Part shown: positions 10,108 to 61,850 of the stretch, piece by piece
How positions within the stretch are numbered: position 1 is the stretch's first letter
How the letters are laid out: every line of letters begins with the position of its first letter
Origin: Pseudomonadota bacterium
GTDB taxonomy: Bacteria > Myxococcota > JACRCW01 > JAFGSX01
Length of the DNA: 64,000 nt
Direction: 5' to 3'
NCBI GenBank assembly: GCA_043821645.1
Contig: JBDRCO010000087.1
Location: forward strand, 160,001-224,000
The notes under the pieces: model-generated
Databases searched by the model: none
Told to the model about the DNA's origin: nothing
What the model saw: only the letters and a program-made list of their open reading frames with translations
Translations under genes and position numbers: made by a program

Positions 10108-11292
<1,185 letters not shown>

Positions 11293-17836: not shown

Positions 17837-17950
17837 CATCTCGACGCAAAAGAAAGTGCCGTCGCCGAAAATCGCGTGCCGCGCTGCGCCATGGATGACG
17901 CTCCGCGGCGACAGAGCGTTCACAGTACAAAGGCGGAGCAGGCTGCGATC

Positions 17951-19762
17951 ATGAGCGAGAAGAAGGTCGAGGACCCCATCCTGAACAGCGTGGTGGCGGG
18001 TCGCTACGAGGTCTACGCCAAGCTGGGAGAGGGCGGCATGGGCGCTGTGTATGCCGCCCGGCAGGCCCCCCTGGGCCGCACCGTCGCCCTCAAGGTACTG
18101 CTCAAGCAGCTGTCCAAGGACCCCATCGCCATCAAGCGTTTCGAGAAAGAGGCGCTGGCCATCAGCAGACTGGCCCACCCCAACACCGTCACCATCTTCG
18201 ACTTCGGCACCACCGATCAGGGCCTGATGTACATCGCCATGGAGTTCCTCGAGGGACGCTCCCTGCGCGACGTGATTGGCAACGAGGCACCGCTGCGCCC
18301 TCGGCGGGTCGTGCGCATCCTGGCGCAGATGGTGCGAGCGCTCAGCGAGGCGCACCAGCGCGGCGTGATTCACCGCGACCTCAAGCCCGACAACATCATG
18401 CTGGTACCTACCGCCGGCGAGCCCGACTTCGTCAAGGTGCTCGACTTTGGCGTGGCCAAGCTGCGCGCGCCCGAAGGTGGCCCCGCGGTCAAGACCCTGA
18501 CCCAGGGCGACGTCATCTTCGGCACGCCGCGCTACATGAGCCCCGAGCAGGTCAACGGCATCATGGACGACCCCCGCAGCGATCTGTATGCGGTGGGTGC
18601 CATCGCCTACGAGATGCTGGCCAGCGTGCCTGTGTTCGATGGCGATTCGGCCATGACCATTCTCATCAAGCAGGTCCAGGACCCGCCGCGGCCCTTTGCT
18701 CGCCTGCCCAGACCCATCGAGGTGCCCGAGGCGCTCGAGGCGCTGGTGCTGCGCTTGCTATGCAAGGATCGCGAGCAGCGAATCCAGAGCGCGGATGCAC
18801 TGCTCGAGGCCCTCGACGAGTTACCTGTGCTCGGTGGCGGTCTGCGCCCTGCCTCCGGGCGTACCGAGACCATGGTCAAGCCCATGTTGACTCCCGACGC
18901 CACGCCGCGGGTGGGTACGGAGCTGATGGGGAGCAACTTCGCCCGCCCGCCAGCCCCCCTGCCGGGCGGTTCCGGCGCGGAGACAGCGGCGCTGAGTCCG
19001 CCCGCCACGGCACCGTCACCGGGGGCGGCCGAGCTGGCCGCAACCATCCCACCGAGCGAGGGGACAGCTCCGGTGCGCCGTTCTCCTGTCGCGCCGGCAC
19101 CAGCCACTTCTACCGACGACGACGTGGAGCTGCCGCGCCGCCGCGGGGGGCTGTGGCTCGCCCTGGCGGGTGGCTTGGTGCTGGTTGCTGCGGTGACGGT
19201 GTGGGCCCTGTCCGGTGACAAGGCGGCGCCGTTTCCGGACGACACCTCGGTGGCTGCACCTGCCCAGGCAGCCCTCGCGATCGTGGTCGAACCCGAGGGT
19301 GCCCTGATCACCGTCGACGGCGAACTTCGTGGTCAGGCTCCGCAGACCGTGCAGGTGTCCACCGGGCGCAGCCACCTGATCGAGGCCACGCTGGCGGGAT
19401 ATCTCCCTCAATCGAAGCAGGTGGCTGTCGAGCAGGCCACCCGCGTGGTCTTGAGCCTGCAAGCGGAGTCCCGTGACGTCGGGCCAGCGCCGGGCGAACG
19501 CGATGCAGGAGCCACCTCGCCCGGTGTCCGTCCCGGGACCGGAGCCAGGCCTGTCCCCGGCGCCACGAAAGGCAAACCCGATGCGGCGCAGGCGACGGCT
19601 GAACCGCAGCCCCAGGTCACCCCCGAGCCGAAGCCGGAGCCAAACCCGGAACCCAAGCCCGAACCCAAGCCCAAGCCGGAGGCCAAGCCGAAACCCAAGC
19701 CGGGGTTCGAGATCGACGACAGCGACTTCGAGAAGTTCGACGAGTTCAAACCCATCGAGTGA
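17951..19762 (+). CDS. membrane Ser/Thr protein kinase with PEGA domain and PEPK-repeat tail
   Basis: GEGGMG, VALK, HRDLKPDN, DFG, GTPRYMSPE; TM helix; PEGALITVDG. Confidence 0.92.
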   Translation: MSEKKVEDPILNSVVAGRYEVYAKLGEGGMGAVYAARQAPLGRTVALKVLLKQLSKDPIAIKRFEKEALAISRLAHPNTVTIFDFGTTDQGLMYIAMEFLEGRSLRDVIGNEAPLRPRRVVRILAQMVRALSEAHQRGVIHRDLKPDNIMLVPTAGEPDFVKVLDFGVAKLRAPEGGPAVKTLTQGDVIFGTPRYMSPEQVNGIMDDPRSDLYAVGAIAYEMLASVPVFDGDSAMTILIKQVQDPPRPFARLPRPIEVPEALEALVLRLLCKDREQRIQSADALLEALDELPVLGGGLRPASGRTETMVKPMLTPDATPRVGTELMGSNFARPPAPLPGGSGAETAALSPPATAPSPGAAELAATIPPSEGTAPVRRSPVAPAPATSTDDDVELPRRRGGLWLALAGGLVLVAAVTVWALSGDKAAPFPDDTSVAAPAQAALAIVVEPEGALITVDGELRGQAPQTVQVSTGRSHLIEATLAGYLPQSKQVAVEQATRVVLSLQAESRDVGPAPGERDAGATSPGVRPGTGARPVPGATKGKPDAAQATAEPQPQVTPEPKPEPNPEPKPEPKPKPEAKPKPKPGFEIDDSDFEKFDEFKPIE

Positions 19763-19764
19763 TC

Positions 19765-20763
19765 ATGCGATCAGCACTGCATATCGGATTGACCGGGTGG
19801 ATGCTGCTATCGGTGGCGGGGTGTGGCCTTTTTGTCGATCGCCTGCCCGAGGGCGTGGTGCTCGATCGCACCGTGCAGGATCGCTTCGTGAACCTCGACG
19901 GCGTCAAGCATCACTACCGGGAGTGGCCAGGTCCGGGGCGCGATATCTTCCTGCAGCACGGCTTTGGCTCTTCGACCTACACTTGGGAGTGGCTGGCGCC
20001 GCAGCTCAACGCAGCGGGGTACCACGTCTGGGCCCTCGACCTGCGCGGCTTTGGCTGGTCCGACAAGCCCCAGGACGCCGCCTACGATCCCCGGGCCCTG
20101 CTCGCGGACATGCACCACTTTCTCGACGACAAGGGCCTGCGCGACCTCATCTTGATCGGGCATTCCCTGGGCGGTGGACTGGCCTGGATGACGGCCGTCG
20201 AGAGACCCGACCTGGTGCAGCGCCTGGTGCTCATCGACGCCGCTGGCTACACCGGCAGCGTGCCCGCGGTGATTCACCTGGCCAGCTGGCCTCTGGCCGA
20301 CCAGCAGATGGAGCTGGTGTTCGGACGCTGGGCTGTGCGCTGGGTGCTGGGCGAGGTCTACCAGCAGGACAGCTTGCTCACCGATGACCGCGTCGACGCC
20401 TACTACGATCGCCTGCGCACCCGGGGCATGCTGCACGCGCAGGCCGAGCTGTCTCGCAGCTTGCTCGACGAGACCATGCACCGGATGAGCCAGCGCATCC
20501 CCGAGGTGCAGCAGCCCACCTTGATCCTGTGGGGCGCTCACGACATCTGGCTCCCGCCTGAGCAGGGTCAGCGCTTTCATCAGGACATCGCGGGTTCGAG
20601 GCTGCAGGTGCTGGACTGCTGCGGTCACATGCCGCAGGAGGAATCGCCCGAGGAGGTGGCGCGACTGATCCTGGACTTCTTGCGCAGCACCGAGCCCGTC
20701 GAGGGACTGACGACGTCTGCCCCCGCTTCACAACCCTCAGGGGCCGAGGCCGAGCGTCCCTAG
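19765..20763 (+). CDS. alpha/beta hydrolase lipoprotein
   Basis: Lipobox VAGC; HGFG, DLRGFGWS, GHSLGG, CGHMPQEE. Confidence 0.88.
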   Translation: MRSALHIGLTGWMLLSVAGCGLFVDRLPEGVVLDRTVQDRFVNLDGVKHHYREWPGPGRDIFLQHGFGSSTYTWEWLAPQLNAAGYHVWALDLRGFGWSDKPQDAAYDPRALLADMHHFLDDKGLRDLILIGHSLGGGLAWMTAVERPDLVQRLVLIDAAGYTGSVPAVIHLASWPLADQQMELVFGRWAVRWVLGEVYQQDSLLTDDRVDAYYDRLRTRGMLHAQAELSRSLLDETMHRMSQRIPEVQQPTLILWGAHDIWLPPEQGQRFHQDIAGSRLQVLDCCGHMPQEESPEEVARLILDFLRSTEPVEGLTTSAPASQPSGAEAERP

Positions 20764-21393
20764 CGCGTTCTTCGTGGCGGGCGCCTGGACCTCACCGCGG
20801 TCGATGAGCGCGGCCAGCCGCACCAGATCCTTCAGCTCGTCCACGTCGAACCAGGGCGGCAGCAGCACGGGGCGCATGCCATTGTCGACCAGCCTGCGCT
20901 GCGTGGCCTGCGCGGTCGTGGGCGCGCTCCAGGGCAGATCCGCCAGCAGTCCCGCAGGGCATCGCCTCAGTGCCAGCAGGTAAAACCCCCCGTCGTCACT
21001 GGGTCCAAGCACGGCGTCGTGTCCGGCGACAAACTCGGCACGGCACTGCTTGAGAAACGCGACCGGGAGTCCCGGTGTGTCTGCACCCAGGGCGATGGCG
21101 ACGTCGGCATCCTGCAGGGCCCGTCGCAACACGCGCTCGATGCGTGCGCCCAGATCGCCTTCACCCTGTTCCCACTGCAGGTTCGCCGGGACGCCGTCGA
21201 CGGGTCCGGTGCACGCGAGCACGCGGCGGACCCAGCTCAGTTGCCGCAGGGCCGCCCAGCTGTCGTCGAGAAAGGCCTGCGCCAGGGTGACCGCTGCATC
21301 GTCACCCAGTGGGGCAGCCAGGCGTGTCTTGACCTGCCCGGCAACGGGGGGCTTGGCAAACAGGCAGCAGGTGATGCGCGGGTCAGCGGCCAC
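20737..21393 (-). CDS. DUF2064/TIGR04282-type glycosyltransferase-like protein
   Basis: FAKPPVAGQVKTRL, QGEGDLGAR, LGADTP, LGPSDDGGFYL, WFDVD. Confidence 0.85.
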   Translation of the reverse strand: MAADPRITCCLFAKPPVAGQVKTRLAAPLGDDAAVTLAQAFLDDSWAALRQLSWVRRVLACTGPVDGVPANLQWEQGEGDLGARIERVLRRALQDADVAIALGADTPGLPVAFLKQCRAEFVAGHDAVLGPSDDGGFYLLALRRCPAGLLADLPWSAPTTAQATQRRLVDNGMRPVLLPPWFDVDELKDLVRLAALIDRGEVQAPATKNALGTLGLGP

Positions 21394-21474
21394 GTGCGCT
21401 CCGCGAACGCACCGGCGAAGCCCGGTGGCGCCCGTCGAGGCAGAACCGCGTCGCGGCCTCTCGCTGCGTGCCCT

Positions 21475-21711
21475 TCACAGCTTGGTATGGCTGCCATCGC
21501 AGTACGGCCTGTTCGCCGAGTGCTTGCAACCACACCACGCGATCTTTTTCGGAGCGTCGAGCTTGACCTCGACGGGGGTGAACTCGGTGCCCTTGTGCGC
21601 ACCACTGCAAAAGGGCTGGGTGGTCGAGCGGCCGCAGGCGCACCACCAGTAGGTGCCAGCTTGCATATCGAGCAGGTATGGCGACTTCTGCGGGACCCTT
21701 GGTTCGCTCAC
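21475..21711 (-). CDS. CDGSH iron-sulfur domain protein (two NEET motifs)
   Basis: WCACGRS..QPFCSGAH and WCGCKHS..PYCDGSH; GGAGG RBS before GTG. Confidence 0.9.
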   Translation of the reverse strand: MSEPRVPQKSPYLLDMQAGTYWWCACGRSTTQPFCSGAHKGTEFTPVEVKLDAPKKIAWCGCKHSANRPYCDGSHTKL

Positions 21712-21935
21712 TGTGACCTCCAGTCGAAGGGACCATGTCGGCACCTGGCAAGCACCGAGAACGCACTGCCAGGGAGACCCATAAATACCCGGCTTTGGGA
21801 TGGGAATAGTGCACTGAGAGTGTTTTCATTGATGAAGTGCTCAACTATCGCAACCCGGACCTTGCACATGGCAGATTGACGAACCATCGTCTAAATTTGC
21901 TGCTGCTGGGTTCCGAGACCACCCACGAGAGGCGA

Positions 21936-22364
21936 ATGACCGCGTTCCCGCTCCACTGCCATTCCCCGAGCCTAGCATTCCGTGTCGAAGCGGAAAGCCC
22001 GCGTTTTCTTGCTCTTTGTGCGCGAGGCACCAGCATGGCCCCAGCATTGCGCAGCGGTGACTGGCTGCTGGTCGACGTGCAGGCCTCGGCGCCTCGCCCT
22101 GGCGAGATCTGGTGCTGCCACATCACAGGGCGTGTGGTTGCGCATCGGATTGTGTCCGTGGAAGAACGAGATGGCCGGACCTGGATTCGCTCTTGCAGCG
22201 ACGGCGGTCGGCTGGACCCCTGGACCGACAGCACCATTGGCCGGGTCGTCCTCGGGCTTCGCGAGGGCAAGCTATTCGATATCCCACGGAGGCCCCTGCG
22301 ACGCCGCCTCGCCTGGCTGAGGCGAACCGTCGCGGGCGCGCGCAGCCTGGGACGGGTGGCCTGA
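21936..22364 (+). CDS. S24/S26 family peptidase-like protein
   Basis: GTSMAPALRSGD (Ser), VVAHRIV (His), IGRVV; start uncertain. Confidence 0.75.
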   Translation: MTAFPLHCHSPSLAFRVEAESPRFLALCARGTSMAPALRSGDWLLVDVQASAPRPGEIWCCHITGRVVAHRIVSVEERDGRTWIRSCSDGGRLDPWTDSTIGRVVLGLREGKLFDIPRRPLRRRLAWLRRTVAGARSLGRVA

Positions 22365-22369
22365 CCACG

Positions 22370-22660
22370 ATGGCCAGGATCTCGCCACCTCGCCGCGCTG
22401 CCGACGTGTCGTGGCGCGAGATCGGTCAGGATGTGGTGGTCGTTCCCATCCGAACCTCGGTCGATCAACCTCTGTGCGTGCACACGCTCAACTCGGTGGG
22501 CGCGTTCATCTGGTTGCTGCTGGATGGAAACCTGACCGAGCACGAGATCGCCGCGCGCGTCGCCGAGCAGTTCGAGGTTGACGAGCAGCGGGCGTATGTC
22601 GACCTGCGGGACTATCTCGAGGAGCTGGCCGCCAGCGAGCTGCTGGAGTCGGACGGATGA
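22370..22660 (+). CDS. PqqD family RiPP recognition element (RRE)
   Basis: 96 aa; WREIGQDVVVVP, TLNSVGAFIWLLLDG, QFEVD...DLRDYLEEL. Confidence 0.9.
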   Translation: MARISPPRRAADVSWREIGQDVVVVPIRTSVDQPLCVHTLNSVGAFIWLLLDGNLTEHEIAARVAEQFEVDEQRAYVDLRDYLEELAASELLESDG

Positions 22661-23769
22661 GCAGCATGCTGCAGCAGCTTCCGGTTGAACCCACCTCGCC
22701 AGCCCCGGACGACGTCCTGGCTCGTGCGCTGCGGGGCACACGCGTCCCCTTCGCGGGGAACTTCGAGCTGACCCTGCGCTGCAACCTGAACTGTAGCCAC
22801 TGCTACCTTGGGCAGGACCGCGTCCGCGCCGAGCTTCCGACCGACGAGGTGCTGCGCATCCTCGACGAACTGGCCACGGCCGGTACCCTGGTGCTCGCGC
22901 TCACGGGGGGCGAGCCCCTGCTCAGGCCCGACTTCGAGATCATCTACCTGCACGCGCAGCGTCGGGGCTTCTTGCTCAGTGTGTTCAGCAACGGCATCGC
23001 CCTGACCCCACGACACGTCGAGATGTTCTGCGCTGCGCCACCGCGCGCCATCGAGATCTCCCTGTACGGGACCTCGGACGAGGACTATCTCCACGCCACG
23101 GGGTATCGCATCGCGTTCGGAAATCTTGACCGCACGCTGCGGTCCCTGCGCGACGCTCGGCTTCCGGTCCGACTCAAGACCATGGCCACGCGCACTCTCG
23201 GCCCACGCCTCGACGACATGCGCGCCTATGCCCGTGAGCTGGGCATCCCCCTGCAGTTCGGAACCGTCCTGTTCAGCGCGCGCGATGGCAGCCCGGGCGC
23301 TGATGGTGAGCGCCTCGACGCCGGGGCTGCGGTGGCCTTCGAGGCCCAGCCTGACGTCTTGTGTTACCTGGTCGAGCGCGATCGCGCCACCATGCCGACC
23401 CAGGACAGCCGGCGCGTCACCTGCGGAGCGGGGCGGGTCGCCTTCAGCATCGATCCCGCGGGGGTCATGCGCCGCTGCAGCGCCCTGCCCGTCAAGGCCA
23501 CCCCGGCTGCAAGTCTCAAGCACCTCAGCGTGCAGGAAGCCTGGCGAGCTCTCGGTGAGCAACTCGAGTGCGAGCTCCCGCGTGACCACCCGTGTCGAGG
23601 CTGCGTGCTGCGGCACCTCTGCAACCGATGCGAGGCCACGTTCTCGCCTTCCGTCCAGGTCGAGATGTGCGCGCATGCTCACGCGCGAGCGCGGCAGCTT
23701 GGCCACTGCGTGCCCGGAGACCCACCGCTACGCGCGTACCTGTCGCACGAGGAGTCTGCCGATGAGTGA
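22657..23769 (+). CDS. radical SAM/SPASM peptide maturase
   Basis: ELTLRCNLNCSHC, TGGEP, CGAG..SIDPAGVMRRC, CRGC..HLCNRC. Confidence 0.92.
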   Translation: MSSMLQQLPVEPTSPAPDDVLARALRGTRVPFAGNFELTLRCNLNCSHCYLGQDRVRAELPTDEVLRILDELATAGTLVLALTGGEPLLRPDFEIIYLHAQRRGFLLSVFSNGIALTPRHVEMFCAAPPRAIEISLYGTSDEDYLHATGYRIAFGNLDRTLRSLRDARLPVRLKTMATRTLGPRLDDMRAYARELGIPLQFGTVLFSARDGSPGADGERLDAGAAVAFEAQPDVLCYLVERDRATMPTQDSRRVTCGAGRVAFSIDPAGVMRRCSALPVKATPAASLKHLSVQEAWRALGEQLECELPRDHPCRGCVLRHLCNRCEATFSPSVQVEMCAHAHARARQLGHCVPGDPPLRAYLSHEESADE

Positions 23770-23938
23770 GAAGAAGAAGCAGCCAAAGCCGGCGCGGCGT
23801 CCATACCAGCGACCTCAGGTGCACAGGGTCCCCGTGTCGTCGGAAGAGGCCCTGCTGGCCGTGTGTCCTCTCAACGCGGGGGGCGGCACGCAGGGCTTCG
23901 AGGGCGCACCCTGTAGTGCCTGCTTCACGGCGAGCTAG
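23762..23938 (+). CDS. putative RiPP precursor peptide (58 aa)
   Basis: MSEKKKQPKPARRPYQRPQVHRVPVSSEEALLAVCPLNAGGGTQGFEGAPCSACFTAS; GAGGAG RBS; overlaps rSAM stop. Confidence 0.8.
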   Translation: MSEKKKQPKPARRPYQRPQVHRVPVSSEEALLAVCPLNAGGGTQGFEGAPCSACFTAS

Positions 23939-23946
23939 GTCGCGCG

Positions 23947-24840
23947 ATGAACAACCACGGCTTTACCTTGCGCCTGGGGCCATTGGGGCTGCACCTGCGG
24001 GGCGATCTCGACCCCGCCGAGCTGCCTCTGCCCGCTCGACCCTTTGTCGACGAGCCCCGCGAGGATGACCTGCTCGTCGAGACACAGCAGTTTCAGGATC
24101 GTGCGCGACAGTCCCCTAAGGGCTCCGATGCCCTGTCGTGGCGAGGTGAGCGTCGTGGCGATGAGCTGGCCTTCGCAGCCCACGCCTCGCCGGCCTCGCC
24201 GCCGCTGGCCTTGGCGACCCTGCGACCGGTGGGCGCGACCCTGCATCGTCGCCCCGAAGACAGCCGGCAGGTCGAGCCGGCCTGGTTCAACCCCCTGCTC
24301 CAGGTGCTGACGGCTCACGCTGCACCTCGCCGGCAGGGTCTTCTTCTTCACGCAGCCTGCGTCCAGCTGCGCGGTCGCGCCTGGCTGCTGGCAGGATCGT
24401 CGGGGTCGGGCAAGTCTACCCTGGCTTCGGCGCTGACCCGCCATGGCGGGCATATCCTCGCCGACGACCGCTCACTGGTCTTTGCGGGGCCACAGCCGGT
24501 CGCCTGCGGCACGCCCTGGGGTGGTGAGCCGGCTCTCAAGCGCGCCGGTACGATCGCGCTGGGGGGCATCCTCTTCGTGCAGCATGCGGATGAGGACGCT
24601 CTGCTCCCCCTCTCGCCAGTGGCGGCGAGCGCGCAGCTCCTGGCCGTGGTGCTCGGCCTGTTTTGGGACAGGACCCTGCTGGACCAGGCCATGGCCCTGG
24701 CGTGTGGGCTGGGTGGCGCGGGGCTGTGCTGGAGGTTCCGTGCTACAGTGTCCGGCCGTGCGCCTGAGTGCCTGCTCTCGCTGTGTGATCGCCTGGAGGA
24801 CCGACGAGTGCGCCAGGTCACGAACGAGGAGGCGGCATGA
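23947..24840 (+). CDS. HPr-kinase-related P-loop protein
   Basis: LLHAACV, GSSGSGKST, ILADDR, GTPW. Confidence 0.8.
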   Translation: MNNHGFTLRLGPLGLHLRGDLDPAELPLPARPFVDEPREDDLLVETQQFQDRARQSPKGSDALSWRGERRGDELAFAAHASPASPPLALATLRPVGATLHRRPEDSRQVEPAWFNPLLQVLTAHAAPRRQGLLLHAACVQLRGRAWLLAGSSGSGKSTLASALTRHGGHILADDRSLVFAGPQPVACGTPWGGEPALKRAGTIALGGILFVQHADEDALLPLSPVAASAQLLAVVLGLFWDRTLLDQAMALACGLGGAGLCWRFRATVSGRAPECLLSLCDRLEDRRVRQVTNEEAA

Positions 24841-27800
24841 CCGCTACAGCTTCTCGCGCACGTCGGACAGTTCACCTCTGGTGGCTCGGCGTGGTCCTGG
24901 CTGCGTGGCCGGCAGGAGCGCACGCCCAGGTCTTCTTCACGCCGACCATCGACGGCAGCAACGCCGAGTGGGGGAGTCAGTTCCACTACCTTGACGGCAA
25001 TGAGGCCGACACGCTGATCCCGGACAATCGCGACATCCGTGTGACCTACGTCGCCAACGACGCCACCTATCTGTACTTTGGCATCGAGACCTACGCCAGC
25101 ATGGGCAACATCGATAGCTTCAACCTGTACATCGACCGCGACAACGACGGTGGGGGGTTTGACTCTAATGACCGCGTCATTGGCGTCGACGTGAACACCA
25201 CCCTCAGCTGCACGGGTCTTCGGGTGTACACGGTCGACGGCAGCGGCACCCCGACTGGAAACGGCACCAATGTTGGCTGCAACAACAACTATGCTCGAGT
25301 TGGCTCCTTTGTCGAGGTCCGGGTCCTCCTCGCCAGGATAGGCATCGGCAGTTCCCCGACCGTCGGCGTGATCTCGGCCATCCGGCCGGTGACGGGCAGC
25401 TACTTCAACGTCTCGCCCAGCCCGCCCTTTCCGACATGGATGCTGTACAACAACACCGGCACCATCACCCCGACCCTGATCCGCGTTACCGCGCTGCAAG
25501 CCAGCGCCAAGGTCGCAGGTGTGGACGTCGAGTGGAGCACATCCGGCGAGCTGCTCAGCCTCGGCACCTGGGTACTCCGGCAGACCGCGCAGGGCGAGTG
25601 GCAGCCCGTGGGCGGCGGTCCGAGCCCCACCGGAATGGCCGTGGCCGGCGCGCGCTACAGGCTGGTGGACCCAGGAGGGCAGGCCGGCGACCGCTATGCC
25701 CTGGCCGAGGTCGACGCCAGGCAGCAGGTCCTGTTCTTTGGCCCCGTCGTCGCCAGCGCGGAGGACAGCCCCGGCAGGCCCATCCGCCAGCAACAGCAGC
25801 TCTGGCGAGGCGTGCCGCACCTCGGCACCACCCGGGGCGCCCTGCGCTCTGTCGAGCCTATCGGGAGCGCGGGCCCCAGAGTCCTGAGCGCGCCGCTGCC
25901 GCCGCTCGCCATGCAATGGCCGCCGCAACGCCGGTCCGTGCCTGAATCTGTGCTGCGCGTACGCGTGTTCGAGCCCGGTCTGCATGTGGTGTGTGATGAC
26001 GACCTGTGGCGATCGGGCTGGCAAAGGGCGGTTCCCGTCGTCACCCTGCAAGACCGCCCCTTGCCGGTGTGGCGCGTACCTGCCCGGCTCGCGGGCTGCC
26101 CTGGTCACGCGTTCTATGCGGCCCAACCGGCTTCGCCCCACGCACCTTTTGAGGCGTACCAGCTCAGGCCCGCGCGCCGCGGCACCCGCTATCCTGCGCT
26201 GCCCGAACCCGGGCGACGTGCGAACGCACCAGCGCGATCCCACTCTGTGGAGCAGCGCTCGCTGCGCCTGGCAAGTCCCACCTTCATCGACATGGGCGAT
26301 GGTTCGCCCAACCGCTTCTTCAGGCAGTGGGTCGCAGGCTTTGCCCCGCTGGACCTGGCTGCCCATCTCCCCGGCGCAGTGGCTGGCGCCGACGTCGTCA
26401 TGAAGGTGGACCTAAGACCGAGTCTCGTCGAGCCCGGCAGTGTGCACGAGCTGGTCGTCACCCACGGAGGCGGCCAGGTGAGCTCCCTGGCCGAGGGACC
26501 GGGTTGGCGCACGGTCGAGCTCACCCTGCCAGGTGCGGCGAGCGAGGAGCTGGCCCTGCAGCTCACCAGTGTCGACAACGGGCTGCTGTACGGAGGCGTG
26601 CTGGTCGGCGATACCGTGCTCGAGTACCCGGGCCGGCTGGCGCTGGAGCAGGGGCGCCTGAGCTTCGAAGCGACCGGTCCTGGCTGGGCCCTGGTCGGGG
26701 ACCGCACCAGTGATCAGGTGCTGGCCCTCGACGTCAGTGACCCGCTCACGCCGCTGCCGCTGCAGGTGAACCTGGTGGGCACGGCGCAGGTCGCGGTTCA
26801 ACTGGCACCCACGCGAGGGGTGCCGAGACGGGTGCTGGTGCTGGAGTGCTCGACGCTGCCCACGGCTGTGCTCGAGCGGGTCGAGACCGATCCTGCTATC
26901 GACGCTGCTAGCACCCACGGCGAGTATCTGGTGCTCGGACACGGAGCCTTGTTGCCGTCGCTGCAGCCCCTGGTCGAGCTGCGGCGCCAGCAGGGTCTGT
27001 CGGTTCAGGTGCTGTCACTGCAGGCGGTGTACGATCGCTTCAGCTTCTCGCAGACCGATCCGCGCGCCATTGCTGCGCTGCTGGCGTGGGCGCGGGAGCA
27101 CTGGGCCGCGCCGCCGCGCTTCATGCTGCTGGTGGGCTCGACCTCCTATGACCCCTGGGGCTACCAGGTGGGCTCGCCGGCTGCCGACGCGCCCATCCAG
27201 ACGCACTGGCTTGACAGCCTCGATCACCGCGCGTGGAGCGACTCGCTGCTGGTGGCCGACGCGGCAGGTCTGCCTCGCGTGGCCGTGGGGCGTTTGCCCA
27301 GCTCGGACCCCGTGGCCCTCGCGCGCTACGTGGCCAAGGTCGTGGACTACGAGGCCAGTCTAGCCACCTTGGGGCGCACCGGGGATGTGCTGGCGCTAGC
27401 AGGCCGCTCGCAGTTTGCGGCGGACCCGGACTTTGCGGTCCTGGCCTCGGCGCTGGCGGAAACCACGGGACTGGCAGCCGTCCCCATCGCGACCGGCGCA
27501 CCTGGCGCCGCTGAACAACTGAGTGCTACATGGCCGCTAGCCGAGCTGGTGCTGTACGTGGGACACGGCGACGCACAGGGCTGGGCCGACGACGCGCTCG
27601 ACCTGCAGAGCCCGGCCACGCTGTCTTCGCAGCGTCCTCCCGTGGTGATCAGCGCCACCTGCATGGATGGCATGTTCATGCGCCCGACGGGGAGCCTGGC
27701 CTGGGCGCTGCTGGACACGGCGAGCGACACGGGCGCCTCCCTGGCCATTAGCGCGACCAGCTTGCTTGATCCCAACGTGGCCTCTGGTTTTACTCAGCGC

Positions 27801-27944
27801 TTGCTGCAAGAAGCCCAGGGTGCCACCTGGGGCGAGGCATGGCTCGCGGCCCAGCTCGCTTCCGGTGACGAGATGGCGCACAGCATGGTTCTCATCGGCG
27901 ATCCCGCGCTGACCGCGCGCCTGCCCGCACCCCAGCACCCCTGA
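24837..27944 (+). CDS. secreted C25 family (gingipain-like) cysteine peptidase with N-terminal beta-rich domains
   Basis: Signal AHA-Q; PRFMLLVG, VAVGRLP, YVGHG (His), ISATC (Cys), LIGDP. Confidence 0.85.
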   Translation: MTATASRARRTVHLWWLGVVLAAWPAGAHAQVFFTPTIDGSNAEWGSQFHYLDGNEADTLIPDNRDIRVTYVANDATYLYFGIETYASMGNIDSFNLYIDRDNDGGGFDSNDRVIGVDVNTTLSCTGLRVYTVDGSGTPTGNGTNVGCNNNYARVGSFVEVRVLLARIGIGSSPTVGVISAIRPVTGSYFNVSPSPPFPTWMLYNNTGTITPTLIRVTALQASAKVAGVDVEWSTSGELLSLGTWVLRQTAQGEWQPVGGGPSPTGMAVAGARYRLVDPGGQAGDRYALAEVDARQQVLFFGPVVASAEDSPGRPIRQQQQLWRGVPHLGTTRGALRSVEPIGSAGPRVLSAPLPPLAMQWPPQRRSVPESVLRVRVFEPGLHVVCDDDLWRSGWQRAVPVVTLQDRPLPVWRVPARLAGCPGHAFYAAQPASPHAPFEAYQLRPARRGTRYPALPEPGRRANAPARSHSVEQRSLRLASPTFIDMGDGSPNRFFRQWVAGFAPLDLAAHLPGAVAGADVVMKVDLRPSLVEPGSVHELVVTHGGGQVSSLAEGPGWRTVELTLPGAASEELALQLTSVDNGLLYGGVLVGDTVLEYPGRLALEQGRLSFEATGPGWALVGDRTSDQVLALDVSDPLTPLPLQVNLVGTAQVAVQLAPTRGVPRRVLVLECSTLPTAVLERVETDPAIDAASTHGEYLVLGHGALLPSLQPLVELRRQQGLSVQVLSLQAVYDRFSFSQTDPRAIAALLAWAREHWAAPPRFMLLVGSTSYDPWGYQVGSPAADAPIQTHWLDSLDHRAWSDSLLVADAAGLPRVAVGRLPSSDPVALARYVAKVVDYEASLATLGRTGDVLALAGRSQFAADPDFAVLASALAETTGLAAVPIATGAPGAAEQLSATWPLAELVLYVGHGDAQGWADDALDLQSPATLSSQRPPVVISATCMDGMFMRPTGSLAWALLDTASDTGASLAISATSLLDPNVASGFTQRLLQEAQGATWGEAWLAAQLASGDEMAHSMVLIGDPALTARLPAPQHP

Positions 27945-27992
27945 TCCCTCGCAGCGGCGGTCCAAGGCTCCAGCTTGCGGCCCGCACCCTGT

Positions 27993-28913
27993 TCAGATCC
28001 GCGGCCTGAGCCTTTCGACCAGCGCGGTCACGTCCTTGGCGCTGCGCTGCCAGCCGCGCGCCACCACCAGATTCTCCAGATCAAAGGCCAGGGCCTCGCA
28101 GCTGTCGTGGCGCTTGCGGCTCTTGCGCTGCAGGGCCTGGCGCAGGATGGCGTCGAGCTCGGACGGCACCTCGTCGTAGATCTTGCTGGCCGCCGGGATG
28201 TCGGCGTCGCGCACGCGCAGCGCCTGCTCCAGGTCGCTCTCTCCATCGCGCAGGGCGTAGGGCCTCAGCCCGGTGACCATCTCGTAAAGGATCAGGGCCA
28301 GGGCGAACAGGTCGGCGCGGCCGTCCAGGTGCTCGCCGCGGATCTGCTCGGGCGCCATGTAGGCGATCTTGCCCTTGACCCCGCCCAGCACCGAGGTCAC
28401 GGACTCCAGCTTGCCCAGCTTGGCGATGCCGAAGTCGGCCACCTTCACCTGGCCAGCGCGGGTCAAGAAGATGTTGTCGGGGGAGACGTCGCGGTGCACC
28501 AGCTCGAAGTGGCGCCCCGACGGGCTGCAGGCCTCATGCAGGTAGTGCAGGCCGCGACAGGCCTCGATGGCGATGTGCAGGGCCAGGGGCGTGTCGATGA
28601 TCCCGTCCTGCTCCGGACCCTCGCGCAGGGCGTGAGCCAGGTCCAGCCCGTCGATGAGCTCCATGGCAATGTAGTAGTGCCCCTGCACCTCGTCGGATTC
28701 CAGGGTGTTGACCAGGTTGGGGTGATGCAGCAGCACGCTGATGTCGGCTTCGGTCAAAAACAGGTCCAGGGCCTTGGACTGCGCTTCCATCTCTGGACGC
28801 AGGCGCTTGAGCGCCACGTCTTCGCGGTGGCCGTCCTTGCGCGCGCGGTACACGTCGCACATGCCACCCGAGCCAATGCGCTCGATCAGGTTGTAGCGGC
28901 CAAGGCGTTCCAT
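27993..28913 (-). CDS. cytoplasmic Ser/Thr protein kinase
   Basis: GSGGM, VALK, HRDVSPDN, DFG, KGKIAYMAPE. Confidence 0.92.
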   Translation of the reverse strand: MERLGRYNLIERIGSGGMCDVYRARKDGHREDVALKRLRPEMEAQSKALDLFLTEADISVLLHHPNLVNTLESDEVQGHYYIAMELIDGLDLAHALREGPEQDGIIDTPLALHIAIEACRGLHYLHEACSPSGRHFELVHRDVSPDNIFLTRAGQVKVADFGIAKLGKLESVTSVLGGVKGKIAYMAPEQIRGEHLDGRADLFALALILYEMVTGLRPYALRDGESDLEQALRVRDADIPAASKIYDEVPSELDAILRQALQRKSRKRHDSCEALAFDLENLVVARGWQRSAKDVTALVERLRPRI

Positions 28914-29119: not shown

Positions 29120-30862
29120 ATGAAGCGCCACGCGATGCCGCTCCTGCTTGGCTCGACCCTGCTCTCCGCGGCCGCCCTGGCCGAACCCGGGGGCTTCTTC
29201 GACATGGGGGCCGACGACCAGCCTACCCAGGTGCTGGTGGATTTCACCGAGGTCGACGCCCAGGGCCTGAGCGAGCTGGCCAAGTCCATGGGCGTCAACC
29301 TGCGCTTCAACTCCGAGTTCAGCGACGCCGACGAGAACTTCGCGGTGGTCGAGGCCGACAGCCCCGGCATGGTGCAGCGCCTGATCTCCCTGTTCCAGGG
29401 CCGCGCCGACGTCGAGTCGGTGGAGCCCAACTACGTCTACCACGGCCTGTTCACGCCCGATGACCCCATGCTCAAGCACCAGTGGCACATGGACATGATC
29501 CACATGGCCGACGCCTGGGCCAAGGCCCGGGGCCGCGGCGTGGTGGTGGCGGTGATCGATACCGGCGTGTCCGACGGCAAGGGCAAGCTCAAGCCTGTCG
29601 AGGATCTGGACCCGGACCGCTTCGTGCCCGGCTACAACTTCGTCAGCGACAGCCCCGACGCCAGCGACGACCACGCCCACGGCACACATGTGGCTGGCAC
29701 CGTGGCCCAGAGCACGGACAACGGCAAGGGCGTGGCCGGCGTGGCCTTCGAGGCGCGCATCATGCCCATCAAGGTGCTCAGTGCCCGGGGCGGCGGCACC
29801 GTGTCCGACATCGCCGAGGGCATACGCTGGGCCGTGCGCCACGGCGCCGACGTCATCAACATGTCGCTCGGCGGACCCTTTCCGTCGCTGGCCCTGGCCC
29901 GCGCCGTGGCCTACGCGCGCTCGCACGGTGTGGTGGTGGTGTGCGCGGCCGGCAACAGCGGGCGCAAGGGTGTGGGCTATCCCGCGGCCCATTCCGGCTC
30001 CATTGCGGTCAGCGCCCTGGGGCCCGACAAGACGCTCAGCTTCTACTCGTCCTGGGGCAAGCAGGTGGCCATCGCCGCGCCCGGTGGCGATACCCGCGTG
30101 GACCTGAACAACGATGGCATTCCCGACGGCGTGCTACAGAACACGATCGTCCCGGGCGACCCCTCGCGCCAGGGCTACTTCCCCTTCCAGGGCACGTCCA
30201 TGGCCTCGCCCCACGTCGCTGGCGTGGCGGCGCTGATCATCGGCCAGGGCATCACCAGCCCCGACAAGGTGCAGGACATCCTCGAGGGCAGCGCCGAGAG
30301 CCTGGGCGACGGTGAGAAGTACGGTGCCGGCATGGTCGACGCGGCGGCCGCGGTATCGCGCGCCATCTGGCGACCTGGTCTGCTGCGTGCCCTGCTCATG
30401 GTCATCCTGGCCTGGCTACTGGCGCGCATCATCCGTACCAGCGACCGCATGTCGTCGTCGGTGGTGACGCCGGGCTTCGTGCTGGCCCTGGTTGTGGGCG
30501 CCTGCGGCCTGTTCTTCCTGCGTGGCTTCGAGACCACGCTGTGGCCGCTGTTCGTGGTCACCAGGCCCGCCCTCGAGTGGCCGGCTGCCCTGCTGGGCTG
30601 GAACTGGCACCTGAACGCTGTGGTGGGTTCGGCCTTGCCCGCCTTCGTGGTTGGTCTGCTGCTGTACGGCATCAAGCCGCTGCGGCCGCTCGCCGCGGGC
30701 TTCGCCGTAGGCGTGAGCGCCTACCTGCTGGCCTGTGCCGTCGACGGCAGTGTCAACGTGCGCTGGGTGCCGGGCGCCGGCGGTCTCTTCGATCGCGCGT
30801 GGCTGGCGGGCAATGCCCTGCTCACCTTCGGCATGGCGCGCATGATGGTTCCCCGACGCTGA
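29120..30862 (+). CDS. S8 subtilase with C-terminal multi-TM region
   Basis: IDTG, HGTHVAG, AAGN, GTSMASPH; several hydrophobic helices at C-terminus. Confidence 0.92.
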   Translation: MKRHAMPLLLGSTLLSAAALAEPGGFFDMGADDQPTQVLVDFTEVDAQGLSELAKSMGVNLRFNSEFSDADENFAVVEADSPGMVQRLISLFQGRADVESVEPNYVYHGLFTPDDPMLKHQWHMDMIHMADAWAKARGRGVVVAVIDTGVSDGKGKLKPVEDLDPDRFVPGYNFVSDSPDASDDHAHGTHVAGTVAQSTDNGKGVAGVAFEARIMPIKVLSARGGGTVSDIAEGIRWAVRHGADVINMSLGGPFPSLALARAVAYARSHGVVVVCAAGNSGRKGVGYPAAHSGSIAVSALGPDKTLSFYSSWGKQVAIAAPGGDTRVDLNNDGIPDGVLQNTIVPGDPSRQGYFPFQGTSMASPHVAGVAALIIGQGITSPDKVQDILEGSAESLGDGEKYGAGMVDAAAAVSRAIWRPGLLRALLMVILAWLLARIIRTSDRMSSSVVTPGFVLALVVGACGLFFLRGFETTLWPLFVVTRPALEWPAALLGWNWHLNAVVGSALPAFVVGLLLYGIKPLRPLAAGFAVGVSAYLLACAVDGSVNVRWVPGAGGLFDRAWLAGNALLTFGMARMMVPRR

Positions 30863-45084: not shown

Positions 45085-46857
45085 ATGTCCTCGCCGCCTG
45101 CGCCAGAACGCTTCGGGCGCTTCCACCTGCTGCATCGCATCGCGGTGGGTGGCATGGCCGAGGTCCACCTCGCGCACGATACTGCCGATCTCGATCCGCA
45201 CAGTCTGGTCGTGATCAAGAGACTGCGCAGCGAGCTGGAGAAGGACGAGGACTTCGTCCGCATGTTCCTCGACGAGAGCAGCGTGATCAGCCGCCTCGAT
45301 CATGTCGGCATCATCCAGGTGCTCGAGTACGGTGCCGTCGACGGTCACCACTTCATCGCCTTGGAGCATGTCTGGGGCGAGTCCCTGGCCACGCTCACCA
45401 CGTTGTGCACTCGCCAGCGTATCCGCTTCCCGCTGGGGGCGGCGCTGTACATCGGCGCCGAGACCGCCGAGGCCCTGCATCACGCTCACAACCTGTGTGA
45501 CGAGTTTGGCCTGTCGTCGCCGGTCATTCATCGCGACGTGACCCTGGGAAACGTCATGGTGGCCTACGACGGCACGGTCAAGGTGCTGGATTTTGGCATC
45601 GCCAAGGCCGACGAGCGGCTGGCACACACGCGGGTCGGGCAGATCAAGGGAACCCTGGTGTACCTGGCCCCGGAGCAGGTGCGTGGCGCGCCGGTGTCGC
45701 CTGCCACCGACGTGTACCAGCTGGGTGTGCTGCTGTACAAAACACTGGTCGGGTGTGAGCCCTTCACGGGGCGTAGTGAGATCGAGGTGATGGAGGCCAT
45801 CATCGCCGGCCATGTGCTGCGCCCCACGCAGGTGATCAAGGGCTTCCCGCCAGCCATCGAGGCCCTCGTGCTCAAGGCCATGGCGCGTCGGGAGAGCCAG
45901 CGCTTTGGTTCCATGGCTCAGCTCTCGCAGATCCTGCGCTCGCTGCTGGGCTCCGCCTTCGAGGATGGGAGCCAGCGCCTGTCGCGCATCGTCGCGCGCA
46001 TCACCGGCGATCGGGCCGAGCGCCAGCTCGGATATATCCGGGGGCGTCTCGATGGCCTCGACGTGGACCACCTCGACGGCGAGATGATTCGCTGGGGAAA
46101 TATCGACGAGGAGCCGCGGACCCTGGCCGTGGAACTCTCTGCCATCCTCGAGGTCGGCGACGCGTCGGAGCCGGGAGACGGCGACACCCAGGTCACGGAG
46201 CGCGACAGCCTGGGGCTGGACGCGGTCGACGACGACGAAGAGCGGGACGGTCGGACCCTGGCCGAGGCCCTGCGCACCGAGGTGGTGCAGCGCGCGGACG
46301 TGCTGGACGTGCTCGCGTCAGGCCCTTCCACCCTGGCCACCGTTCTTCCCCGGGACGAGGGACAGTCGGCGCTGGCTGACGACGTGTTCGTAAGAGCCCT
46401 GGACCGCGAGGCACCGTCGCTGAGTGACGTGTTTCGCTCGGATGCGCTGCTGGTGCACGTGACCCGGCCCGATCTTCCGGACTTCTTTCGTCTCCTCGAG
46501 GCCGAGGGCCAGATGGCCGATGCCGGGCTGTTCGAGGACGAGCCTCCACCGACCGTGCCGCTGAGTGACCTGCTGCCCGGCGCGTTGCCGACCGCCAGTG
46601 TCGGGACGACCCGTGCGGACAAGCCCGTTGCCCTGGACCAGGATGCCGTACCGGCGGGCAACCCAAGCCTCGGCGGGATCTCTCACGAGACCGAGCGGGA
46701 GACCCGGGTTGACCTTGCCACGCCCAGACCGCAGGCCACACCTCTGGTCGCGCAGGCCGCGCCCTTGGCTGCGCCGGCCGCAGCGGATGAGGATGACGTG
46801 TTCCAGCCCACGGATGATCTCGACTTCGACATCGACGTCGCCGACGACGAGGACTGA
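45085..46857 (+). CDS. Ser/Thr protein kinase with acidic C-terminal extension
   Basis: AVGGMAEV, VVIK, HRDVTLGN, DFG, YLAPE. Confidence 0.88.
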   Translation: MSSPPAPERFGRFHLLHRIAVGGMAEVHLAHDTADLDPHSLVVIKRLRSELEKDEDFVRMFLDESSVISRLDHVGIIQVLEYGAVDGHHFIALEHVWGESLATLTTLCTRQRIRFPLGAALYIGAETAEALHHAHNLCDEFGLSSPVIHRDVTLGNVMVAYDGTVKVLDFGIAKADERLAHTRVGQIKGTLVYLAPEQVRGAPVSPATDVYQLGVLLYKTLVGCEPFTGRSEIEVMEAIIAGHVLRPTQVIKGFPPAIEALVLKAMARRESQRFGSMAQLSQILRSLLGSAFEDGSQRLSRIVARITGDRAERQLGYIRGRLDGLDVDHLDGEMIRWGNIDEEPRTLAVELSAILEVGDASEPGDGDTQVTERDSLGLDAVDDDEERDGRTLAEALRTEVVQRADVLDVLASGPSTLATVLPRDEGQSALADDVFVRALDREAPSLSDVFRSDALLVHVTRPDLPDFFRLLEAEGQMADAGLFEDEPPPTVPLSDLLPGALPTASVGTTRADKPVALDQDAVPAGNPSLGGISHETERETRVDLATPRPQATPLVAQAAPLAAPAAADEDDVFQPTDDLDFDIDVADDED

Positions 46858-61538: not shown

Positions 61539-61717
61539 GGGGCGTCGGGCGCCCCCTCCCCGTCGAGAGTGAATCTCGACGGGACCCCACCCTGCCAGCA
61601 CCGTCACGTCATCTCGCTCCTTGCGTCGCTCGATGCTGTTGGTTTTTTTGTCAGGGGCGTCGGGCGCCCCCTCCCCGTCGAGAGTGAATCTCGACGGGAC
61701 CCCACCCTGCCAGCACC
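61539..61717. repeat. two identical 64-bp direct repeats (61539-61602, 61654-61717), each with two hairpins
   Basis: GGGGCG-TCGGG-CGCCCC and CCCGTCGAGA-GTGAA-TCTCGACGGG in both copies. Confidence 0.9.
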
Positions 61718-61850
61718 ATCCCGGTCATCTCGCTCCGACCTTGCACGGTTCTCGCCGAGGCCACGAGCTTGTCTTGGATCTTGGCCCCCCCCGCACAGAG
61801 GGAGGGTCGACGCGCTGGCAGCGTTGCGCCGCTTCGGCGATACTGCGCAC

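Follow-up and report, generated by a model that had tools for sequence, protein, structure and literature searches.

In a 64,000-nucleotide stretch of a genome deposited as Pseudomonadota bacterium and placed in Myxococcota by GTDB (assembly GCA_043821645.1, contig JBDRCO010000087.1, positions 160,001 to 224,000; the whole stretch is called the window here), six tightly packed genes on the + strand at window positions 21936-27944 form one operon that matures a small ribosomal peptide, of the type known as RiPPs (ribosomally synthesized peptides with post-translational modifications). The operon encodes, in order, an S24/S26-like peptidase, a stand-alone PqqD-type RiPP recognition element (RRE), a radical S-adenosylmethionine (rSAM) enzyme, a short precursor peptide, an HprK-like kinase, and a Peptidase_C25 protein. 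The cassette is an rSAM-bearing relative of the linear polyphosphorylated peptide (LPP) gene sets (LppA/B/K/S/N/D) known from Bacillota (Popov et al., Nat Commun, May 2026, PMC13381572), and its superfamily also holds the LPP and SynChlorMet-type cassettes.

Taken as a whole, the following scheme is probably the best explanation of the operon. The RRE would bind the precursor leader at Tyr15-x-x-Pro18-x-Val20 and present the precursor to the rSAM enzyme, and Cys35, Cys51, and Cys54 would most likely become thioether crosslinks. The HprK-like kinase would add one or more phosphates to Ser, with the C-terminal Ser58 as the best guess, and the soluble signal-peptidase-I-like Ser/His protease, together with the RRE, would cut the leader after Glu29-Ala30 to release a 28-residue core. 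The secreted PorU-like C25 protein would act later, outside the cytoplasm, or may be only loosely connected to the pathway.

Two of the gene junctions are ATGA overlaps, at 22657 (PqqD stop and rSAM start) and at 24837 (kinase and C25, 4 nt), the rSAM gene runs 8 nt into the precursor gene (ATGAGTGA), and the remaining two intergenic gaps are 5 nt and 8 nt. An earlier note on this DNA had described six same-strand genes with these ATGA overlaps between opposite-strand neighbors, and both the coordinates and the flanking - strand genes agree with it. That note had also taken the combination of a stand-alone RRE and an rSAM enzyme for a peptide-maturation cassette, a reading borne out by Pfam matches to PqqD (6.8e-15) and Radical_SAM (5.5e-22) and by a SPASM-like Cys pattern in the rSAM enzyme. 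Lasso peptide and lanthipeptide loci, which the note had set aside, were rejected here as well, as Pfam scanning of 59 window open reading frames (ORFs) found no macrolactam cyclase, B2 protease, LanC, YcaO, or ABC exporter. None of the six proteins reached a curated cut-off in NCBIfam, including the SynChlorMet, GeoRSP, HprK-related A/B, mycofactocin, sactipeptide, and PorU models.

Distribution and phylogeny of the cassette

Genome contigs were searched for relatives of the rSAM enzyme, and 80 loci of 102 relatives were kept; the search is keyed on exact 8-residue words and may miss relatives at 40-70% identity. The three best loci come from metagenome-assembled genomes (MAGs) of Nitrospinota (L001), Desulfobacteraceae (L002), and Methanosarcina barkeri (L003). 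Their rSAM enzymes are 29-35% identical to that of the window, and each locus holds PqqD, rSAM, small ORF, HprK-like, and S26-like genes. Because these five genes recur together in three loci from three other phyla, so that the set is conserved across four, the association exceeds chance. The earlier note had named the lack of a conserved neighboring peptide in rSAM homologs as one ground for dropping its proposal; in all four loci a small ORF separates the rSAM gene from the kinase gene. A PF14907 nucleotidyltransferase is further encoded in L001 and L003, and L001 adjoins polysaccharide export genes. In a FastTree phylogeny of 84 rSAM ORFs (29 of 113 rSAM-positive ORFs were excluded as partial, and support is SH-like only), the enzymes of the four single-rSAM loci fall together in a clade of their own (support 100), and the ScmE-like and ScmF-like enzymes are placed in other clades. 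The window enzyme has a long branch and a skewed composition.

Hidden Markov models (HMMs) built from the four clade loci were run on 24,939 ORFs from 81 sources (the 80 loci and the window), four of which match by construction. Kinase and peptidase models matched 11 ORFs each; beyond the source loci, the kinase was found in L024, L031, L054, L055, L060, L065, and L074, and the peptidase in L008, L031, L054, L055, L065, L074, and L080. All four proteins are present in 8 of the 81 sources (the window, L001-L003, L031, L054, L055, and L065). Five loci, L031, L054, L055, L065, and L074, are SynChlorMet-like, with a ScmD-like PqqD (not seen on L074, a 3-kb contig), ScmE-like and ScmF-like rSAMs, a kinase, a peptidase, and a small ORF of 83-86 residues with a YxxP leader and 5 Cys. 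The two rSAMs of L031 reach 351 and 372 bits (cut-off 400 in each case), and this locus carries an ABC exporter. L024 is SynChlorMet-like as well, with a ScmD-like PqqD, three rSAMs, a kinase, and a 75-residue YxxP small ORF with 5 Cys; the HMM found no peptidase there. When 8 loci were scanned by regular expression for small ORFs with YxxP, 9 candidates came up, of which those in L024 at 6016 and L080 at 456 were judged to be chance.

Other arrangements were seen among the relatives. The Nitrospinota locus (L001:6710-12540) has two PqqD genes, an S26-like peptidase fused to a GNAT acetyltransferase domain, and a TPR protein, with toxin-antitoxin-like small genes between rSAM and precursor and upstream of the cassette, and ambiguous bases near 11230. 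A Sandaracinaceae MAG (L060:1-7700) combines a formyltransferase-like gene, a 288-residue protein with a lasso-type PqqD domain at its end, an rSAM, and an HprK-like kinase 57% identical to the window kinase over 54 residues; its 65-residue YxxP small ORF has a Gly/Thr/Ala-rich core without Cys, and no S26-like gene was found in the locus. A Bacillota MAG (L080:2817-5341) encodes a StsB-like rSAM (257 bits vs a cut-off of 625), a PqqD-like protein, and a 306-residue S26-like protein but no kinase, and is another way of combining the peptidase and RRE pair with an rSAM.

Precursor peptide and leader recognition

The 58-residue precursor (MSEKKKQPKPARRPYQRPQVHRVPVSSEEALLAVCPLNAGGGTQGFEGAPCSACFTAS) carries the Tyr15-x-x-Pro18-x-Val20 motif in its leader, three Cys (35, 51, and 54) in its predicted core, and Ser58 at the end of a Thr-Ala-Ser C-terminus. 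Aligned, the four clade precursors have in common a basic N-terminus and the motif Y-x-[KR]-P-x-[VL], and one Glu and one Cys are invariant. Their cores diverge widely, with 3, 3, 3, and 2 Cys, of which a single one is alignable across all four, and three of the four C-termini read [TVI]-[AG]-S. No Pfam or NCBIfam family matches the clade or SynChlorMet-like precursors. The precursor of L002 (L002:11026-11205) matched QhpC, the small subunit of quinohemoprotein amine dehydrogenase that bears thioether crosslinks, weakly and without significance (E 0.062, 13.2 bits vs a cut-off of 50).

The LPP leader consensus is YxxPxVLxHQxIxFETxxS, with Glu at -2 and Thr at -1 (PMC13381572). For cleavage-site prediction, the LPP spacing (Tyr at -16) was transferred to the four precursors; position -2 is then Glu in each of them, position -1 is Ala or Val, and the first Cys comes at +4 or +5. 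As this spacing puts Glu at -2 and Ala at -1 in the window precursor, a cut is predicted after Ala30.

A profile of five RRE homologues matched TbiB1 (2e-14), PbaB1 (9x90, 5.2e-9), LppB (9x8z, 8.7e-8), and PqqD (4e-4), and the closest solved relatives of the window RRE are the lasso B1 proteins and LppB, of the kind that binds YxxP leaders. Asn41 and Asp78 of the RRE are invariant and correspond in the alignment to Asn33 and Asp70 of LppB, of which the former holds the Pro kink of the leader and the latter its Tyr hydroxyl (PMC13381572). We modelled the RRE in complex with precursor residues 1-36. The complex scored 0.63 (median of three runs) and the best control 0.02; of 80 solved complexes, 58 reach the mark used for this score, as do 2 of 110 mismatched pairs, counts that hold only roughly here because the alignments were our own. 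At least 87% of contacts are common to the runs, with a partner pLDDT (predicted local distance difference test) of at least 61. In the model, the contacts involve residues 11-25 of the precursor, and Pro18 lies against Val43 and Tyr82, a packing that mirrors that of LppA Pro-13 between Val35 and Phe74 (PMC13381572).

The radical SAM enzyme

The CX3CX2C motif of the rSAM enzyme is C42/C46/C49. Seven further Cys (256, 274, 313, 316, 322, 325, and 338) are kept in all four homologues, with the spacing C256-x12-G-x4-C274, C313-x2-C316-x5-C322-x2-C325, and C338, that is, with a central CX2CX5CX2C. The canonical seven-Cys SPASM pattern is CX9-15GX4C ... CX2CX5CX3C ... C. We call this Cys pattern SPASM-like because all seven Cys are conserved in the four homologues. 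The best sequence match in the PDB is the thioether-forming SkfB (2.7e-12), and the scores on curated sactipeptide and ranthipeptide models are far under cut-off (AlbA 46.7 vs 850 bits, StsB 54.7 vs 625 bits). Comparison with a protein atlas returned generic rSAM clusters only. With its SPASM-like auxiliary-cluster domain, this protein is probably the core-modifying enzyme of the cassette.

The HprK-like kinase

The kinase scores 23.8 bits on Hpr_kinase_C in Pfam, under the gathering score of 33.3, and matches the NCBIfam models HprK_rel_A (4.1e-10), HprK_rel_B (2.8e-8), and ScmC (4.3e-8) far under their cut-offs. Across 10 homologues, His135, Lys156, and Asp173 are invariant and Asp174 is nearly so, forming the His-Lys-Asp-Asp motif common to the lasso-peptide kinases (PMC9266682). 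An AlphaFold2 model of the protein (pLDDT 75.1) has the HprK/P structures 1kkl, 1jb1, and 1kkm as its top PDB folds (E 1.8e-5 to 5e-5), with a TM-score by target of up to 0.50, and PEP carboxykinases rank next. Fold and motif together point to an HprK-like P-loop peptide kinase. With this motif conserved, the suggestion of the earlier note that the product may be phosphorylated is plausible. Ser58 is our best guess for the site by analogy only: in lasso systems, the Ser that the kinase phosphorylates is the conserved one at the C-terminus of the precursor (PMC9266682).

The signal-peptidase-like protein

The first protein of the operon matches Peptidase_S24 in Pfam (3.2e-6). With a profile of six homologues, human SEC11C (2.4e-10) and SEC11A (2.7e-9) score better than LexA and the bacterial signal peptidases, and Ser33, in a GTSM motif, and His70-Arg71 are conserved among homologues. 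The highest hydropathy of any 19-residue segment is 0.81, and the protein is therefore taken to lack a transmembrane helix and to be soluble. LexA, lambda cI, and SEC11 are the fold matches of its AlphaFold2 model, which places the protein in clan SF only. Judging from its sequence, the protein is a soluble relative of the archaeal/eukaryotic-type signal peptidase I (S26B, clan SF), of the serine type. The LPP peptidase is likewise SipW/SEC11-like, with Ser-His-Asp; LppS cuts after Thr-1 only in the presence of LppB, and the unphosphorylated precursor is cut poorly (PMC13381572). Because this LPP counterpart has been shown to be an RRE-dependent leader peptidase, the window protein is by analogy a probable leader peptidase of the same kind, equivalent to LppS. 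The earlier note had counted it as one of two unrelated proteases; this protein is a probable part of the maturation machinery and not an odd extra protease, and the other, the C25 protein, is PorU-like.

A tblastn search with the window peptidase returned zero matches, L001-L003 included, and the homologues were found by the HMMs. In the Methanosarcina peptidase (L003:3080-3676), Cys occupies the nucleophile Ser position (GMCM; the others have G-x-S-M). This protein also has a C-terminal hydrophobic segment (hydropathy 2.39), the sole case among five relatives scanned; the window peptidase has none.

The C25 peptidase

Residues 697-1026 of the 1035-residue C25 protein match Peptidase_C25 in Pfam (6e-38), and the PorU model of NCBIfam matches at 2.1e-19. 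His910, in a GHG motif, and Cys942 line up with their counterparts in PorU (6za2). An N-terminal signal peptide is present, and about 560 N-terminal residues have no assigned domain; a protein-atlas search with this region gave no match. By its sequence features, the protein is a secreted PorU-like cysteine peptidase. In L002, a C25 domain with an intact GHG His/Cys dyad forms the C-terminus of a 2725-residue secreted repeat protein directly upstream of PqqD. Within the clade, C25 is found only in the window and L002, and PF14907 only in L001 and L003. In a separate observation, the Fermentibacteria MAG locus encodes, just upstream of its PqqD gene (L031:9099-9662), a small 4Fe-4S ferredoxin-domain protein with Por_Secre_tail (1e-7, 32.5 bits vs a cut-off of 27), a type IX secretion C-terminal sorting signal of the kind cleaved by PorU-type C25 enzymes.

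Weighing the proposed scheme

Several observations weigh against this scheme or parts of it. The window peptidase reaches only 19 bits on the NCBIfam model sigpep_I_arch, against a cut-off of 51.85, and its AlphaFold2 model is weak (pLDDT 62.5; TM-score by query <0.5). The RRE-leader complex may owe its score to the predictor having memorised solved complexes of this kind (5v1u, 6jx3, 9x8z, and 9x90); because such complexes have already been solved, we read the model as likeness to them and not as binding. The archaeal precursor ends in Tyr rather than Ser, and the LPP phosphosite, core Ser3, is not conserved, position +3 of the window core being Ala. Neither the PF14907 transferase of the LPP core nor an exporter, MsbA-like or other, is present in the window. 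C25 is absent from two of the four clade loci and from all two-rSAM loci, and, as the clade has four members and L001 and L003 are sisters in the tree, the split between C25 and the NTP transferase may be a single event. For the rSAM enzyme, the SPASM-like call is made without a match to the Pfam SPASM model, and the best curated match is the mycofactocin maturase MftC (7.1e-22, 78 bits vs a cut-off of 265, profile positions 6-284 of 339), an enzyme that does not make thioethers.

The same cassette and leader logic could also be combined with an rSAM that does not form thioethers but oxidises Cys, epimerises a residue, or acts on the C-terminus in mycofactocin-like fashion, by oxidative decarboxylation or C-C bond formation. 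We regard this as unlikely, though well short of negligible. The MftC match points in this direction, yet its score is far under cut-off. As in PqqE/PqqD and MftC/MftB, and unlike in most sactisynthases, the PqqD partner of the window rSAM is a discrete protein. The C-termini are semi-conserved ([TVI]-[AG]-S in three, Tyr in the archaeal one) and only one Cys is alignable in all four precursors, which would fit chemistry at the C-terminus; the C-terminal Ser is, by analogy, the expected kinase site, however, and Cys-bearing cores occur in all four clade precursors and in all six precursors found for the two-rSAM relatives. The Cys-rich cores of those relatives, with 5 Cys each, and SkfB as the best solved match favor thioether formation.

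A second alternative is that C25 is a passenger, co-transcribed or merely adjacent, so that the functional unit is five genes, and we hold this to be a serious possibility while leaning against it. Consistent with it, L001, L003, and all SynChlorMet-like loci are without C25, the position of C25 varies (downstream in the window, upstream in L002), and C25 has a signal peptide while the other five products have no signal or transmembrane segment, with no exporter to connect the two compartments. Set against this are the 4-bp ATGA overlap with the kinase gene, the intact-dyad C25 domain that directly adjoins the cassette of another phylum in L002, and the fact that the two C25 loci are exactly the two without the PF14907 transferase.

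A bolder role for C25 may also be imagined, in which the phosphorylated, rSAM-crosslinked peptide is handed to the PorU-like C25 acting as a transpeptidase outside the cytoplasm, instead of being glycosylated via PF14907 as in the relatives, and is trimmed or covalently ligated to a cell-surface polymer or protein. We consider this a long shot. If true, it would be a sortase-like fate for a RiPP, with C25 and PF14907 as alternative routes by which one phosphopeptide is completed, and with a module that is ancient and common to Bacteria and Archaea.

Finally, the product might be an intracellular peptide-derived cofactor or signal, as pyrroloquinoline quinone (PQQ) and mycofactocin are, rather than a secreted natural product. 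Mycofactocin systems combine a discrete RRE, a SPASM-type rSAM, and a peptidase, a layout that the cassette parallels; the window has no exporter, and the cassette lies amid YidC, DnaK/DnaJ/GrpE, acetate kinase, and UppS genes. The core sequences of cofactor precursors are not widely divergent, unlike those of the four clade loci. Relatives of the cassette have an ABC exporter (L031) or polysaccharide export genes alongside (L001), and a secreted peptidase is encoded within the operon itself. A cofactor or signal is thus very unlikely, and the preferred reading remains a crosslinked and phosphorylated peptide released by leader cleavage.

Genomic setting

The features of the operon and its flanks are collected in Table 1. 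The wider window is ordinary chromosome of about 68% G+C, in which the cassette lies amid housekeeping genes, including those for YidC, acetate kinase, UppS, CdsA, FabH, and GrpE-DnaK-DnaJ. G+C content at third codon positions is 0.73-0.83 in the six genes and 0.78-0.92 in their neighbors, which does not clearly indicate recent transfer. A promoter and terminator scan of 21300-28300 gave one promoter-like and one terminator-like site, no more than in shuffled sequences, and neither lies at an operon end.

Table 1. Genes and sites of the six-gene operon and its immediate flanks, in window coordinates
Feature	Position	Strand	Product or remark
zf-CDGSH gene, upstream flank	21475-21744	-	two-repeat iron-sulfur protein (Pfam)
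S24/S26-like peptidase gene	21936-22364	+	142 aa
PqqD gene	22370-22660	+	96 aa
Radical SAM gene	22657-23769	+	370 aa
AGGAG, Shine-Dalgarno-like	23750-23754	+	7 nt 5' of the precursor ATG; direct reading
Precursor gene (small ORF)	23762-23938	+	58 aa
HprK-like kinase gene	23947-24840	+	297 aa
C25 peptidase gene	24837-27944	+	1035 aa
Ser/Thr kinase gene, downstream flank	27993-28913	-	Pfam

Upstream, on the opposite strand (20737-21744), a gene for a DUF2064 protein with a weak MobA-like NTP-transferase match (E 7.1e-4) accompanies the zf-CDGSH gene; neither is the PF14907 transferase of the relatives. Two genes downstream of the cassette (29120-30862) is an S8 subtilase with a C-terminal DUF5942 (Pfam 2.2e-56 and 4.2e-12, respectively). 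The flanking Ser/Thr kinase gene is one of four eukaryotic-type Ser/Thr protein kinase genes in the 64 kb, the others lying at 17876-19762, 45085-46857, and 61569-63635, a number in keeping with a Myxococcota-like genome.

Comparison with known systems

The closest published system is the LPP family, whose core module joins a signal peptidase I of archaeal type, an RRE that stands alone, a kinase resembling HprK, and a YxxP leader (PMC13381572). The earlier note had proposed an undescribed system; this can no longer be said of the module of peptidase, RRE, kinase, and YxxP leader, which that paper already describes. The window shares with LPP clusters what its sequence suggests to be a SEC11-like peptidase (SEC11C as the top profile match; Ser33 and His70 conserved), a lasso-like RRE that is discrete and agrees in its Tyr-binding Asp and its Pro-kink Asn, an HprK-like kinase (His-Lys-Asp-Asp in the window protein and its homologues), and a YxxPxV leader with Glu at -2 under the LPP spacing. 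The LPP core set also includes a PF14907 NTP transferase plus an exporter of the MsbA-like kind, and the clusters lie near polysaccharide export genes (PMC13381572), features echoed by PF14907 in L001 and L003 and by the export genes beside L001.

The differences from the LPP clusters are as follows. The window leader has only the Tyr, Pro, Val, and Glu at -2 in common with the LPP consensus, and the Ser at +3, which LppK polyphosphorylates in the LPP core (Ser3; PMC13381572), is not present. The window operon encodes an rSAM enzyme with a SPASM-like domain, whereas LPPs are linear and their clusters have no crosslinking enzyme; the words "radical", "rSAM", and "SPASM" have no occurrence in the main text of PMC13381572. 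The window core is Cys-rich, a C25 peptidase is added, and the hosts of the window cassette and its relatives lie outside Bacillota.

SynChlorMet is a bioinformatic definition given by the NCBIfam models TIGR04248 (ScmD), TIGR04249 (ScmC), TIGR04250 (ScmE), and TIGR04251 (ScmF), and a literature search, with most subscription journals outside its scope, found no paper on the cassette or its TIGR accessions. The combination of PqqD, rSAM/SPASM, and HprK-like proteins is shared with the window, and the fetched SynChlorMet-like loci (L031, L054, L055, L065, and L074) also have an S26-like peptidase and a YxxP precursor. In contrast, SynChlorMet cassettes have two rSAMs (ScmE and ScmF) against one in the window, which falls in a separate clade, and the SynChlorMet-like loci lack C25. 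Scores of the window proteins are 22.6 bits on ScmD (cut-off 100), 32.8 on ScmC (125), 50.4 on ScmE (400), and 42.9 on ScmF (400), and strict membership was rejected on these scores and on the single rSAM. The SynChlorMet link drawn in the earlier note thus survives at the level of the superfamily but not of the Scm models; the HMM check it had proposed, Scm families included, returned matches to related models with none at cut-off.

Paeninodin-type lasso systems (PadeK, ThcoK, and PsmK) also resemble the cassette. Their HprK-like kinase bears His-Lys-Asp-Asp and acts on a conserved Ser at the C-terminus of the precursor, their RRE is of the B1 type, and their leader has the form [Y/W]xxP. They differ in their lasso cyclase and B2 protease, in place of which the window has an rSAM and a serine peptidase. 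Among rSAM systems that form thioethers (sactipeptides, SkfB/AlbA; ranthipeptides, PapB/CteB; and QhpD/QhpC), the auxiliary-cluster Cys and a Cys-bearing core are points of likeness. The window RRE, in contrast, is discrete and not fused, and a kinase and an S26-type peptidase are present. The Crp thioether system was set aside as a different system with a fused RRE, as described in PMC13692751.

Mycofactocin and PorU were considered for single components. Mycofactocin precursors end in Gly-Val-Tyr; the window precursor ends in Thr-Ala-Ser, its rSAM falls short of the MftC cut-off (78 vs 265 bits), and membership was rejected. The C25 protein resembles PorU, the sortase of the type IX secretion system (T9SS), in its aligned His and Cys (PDB 6za2) and its signal peptide, and differs from it in score (68.7 bits vs a cut-off of 420) and in the roughly 560 unassigned N-terminal residues. 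As Pfam scanning of window ORFs gave no T9SS gene and the PorU cut-off was not reached, assignment as a PorU-type T9SS sortase was rejected.

In the literature within the scope given above, no HprK-type kinase or signal-peptidase-type leader peptidase joined with an rSAM RiPP enzyme was found, nor any link of C25 or PorU to RiPPs, and the main text of an rSAM compendium mentions neither kinases nor signal peptidases (PMC10288494). The union of an LPP-like module with a single rSAM outside Bacillota, and its C25 neighbor, are apparently unreported. The LPP paper brought signal-peptidase-I-like enzymes into the RiPP field as leader peptidases, described LPPs as restricted to Bacillota with linear products, and left their post-maturation fate undetermined (PMC13381572). 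Here the same module is joined to one or two rSAMs, and its hosts now include the window's bacterium, Desulfobacteraceae, Nitrospinota, and Fermentibacteria-like lineages and a Methanosarcina MAG, which extends it to Archaea. The predicted class of peptide would be both radical-crosslinked and phosphorylated, the short precursor with its predicted cleavage site offers a compact test system, and the alternation of C25 with a nucleotidyltransferase is a new lead on the post-maturation fate of such peptides. Taken together, the locus ties the LPPs, the phosphorylated lasso peptides, and the uncharacterised SynChlorMet cassettes, formerly treated apart, to one another.

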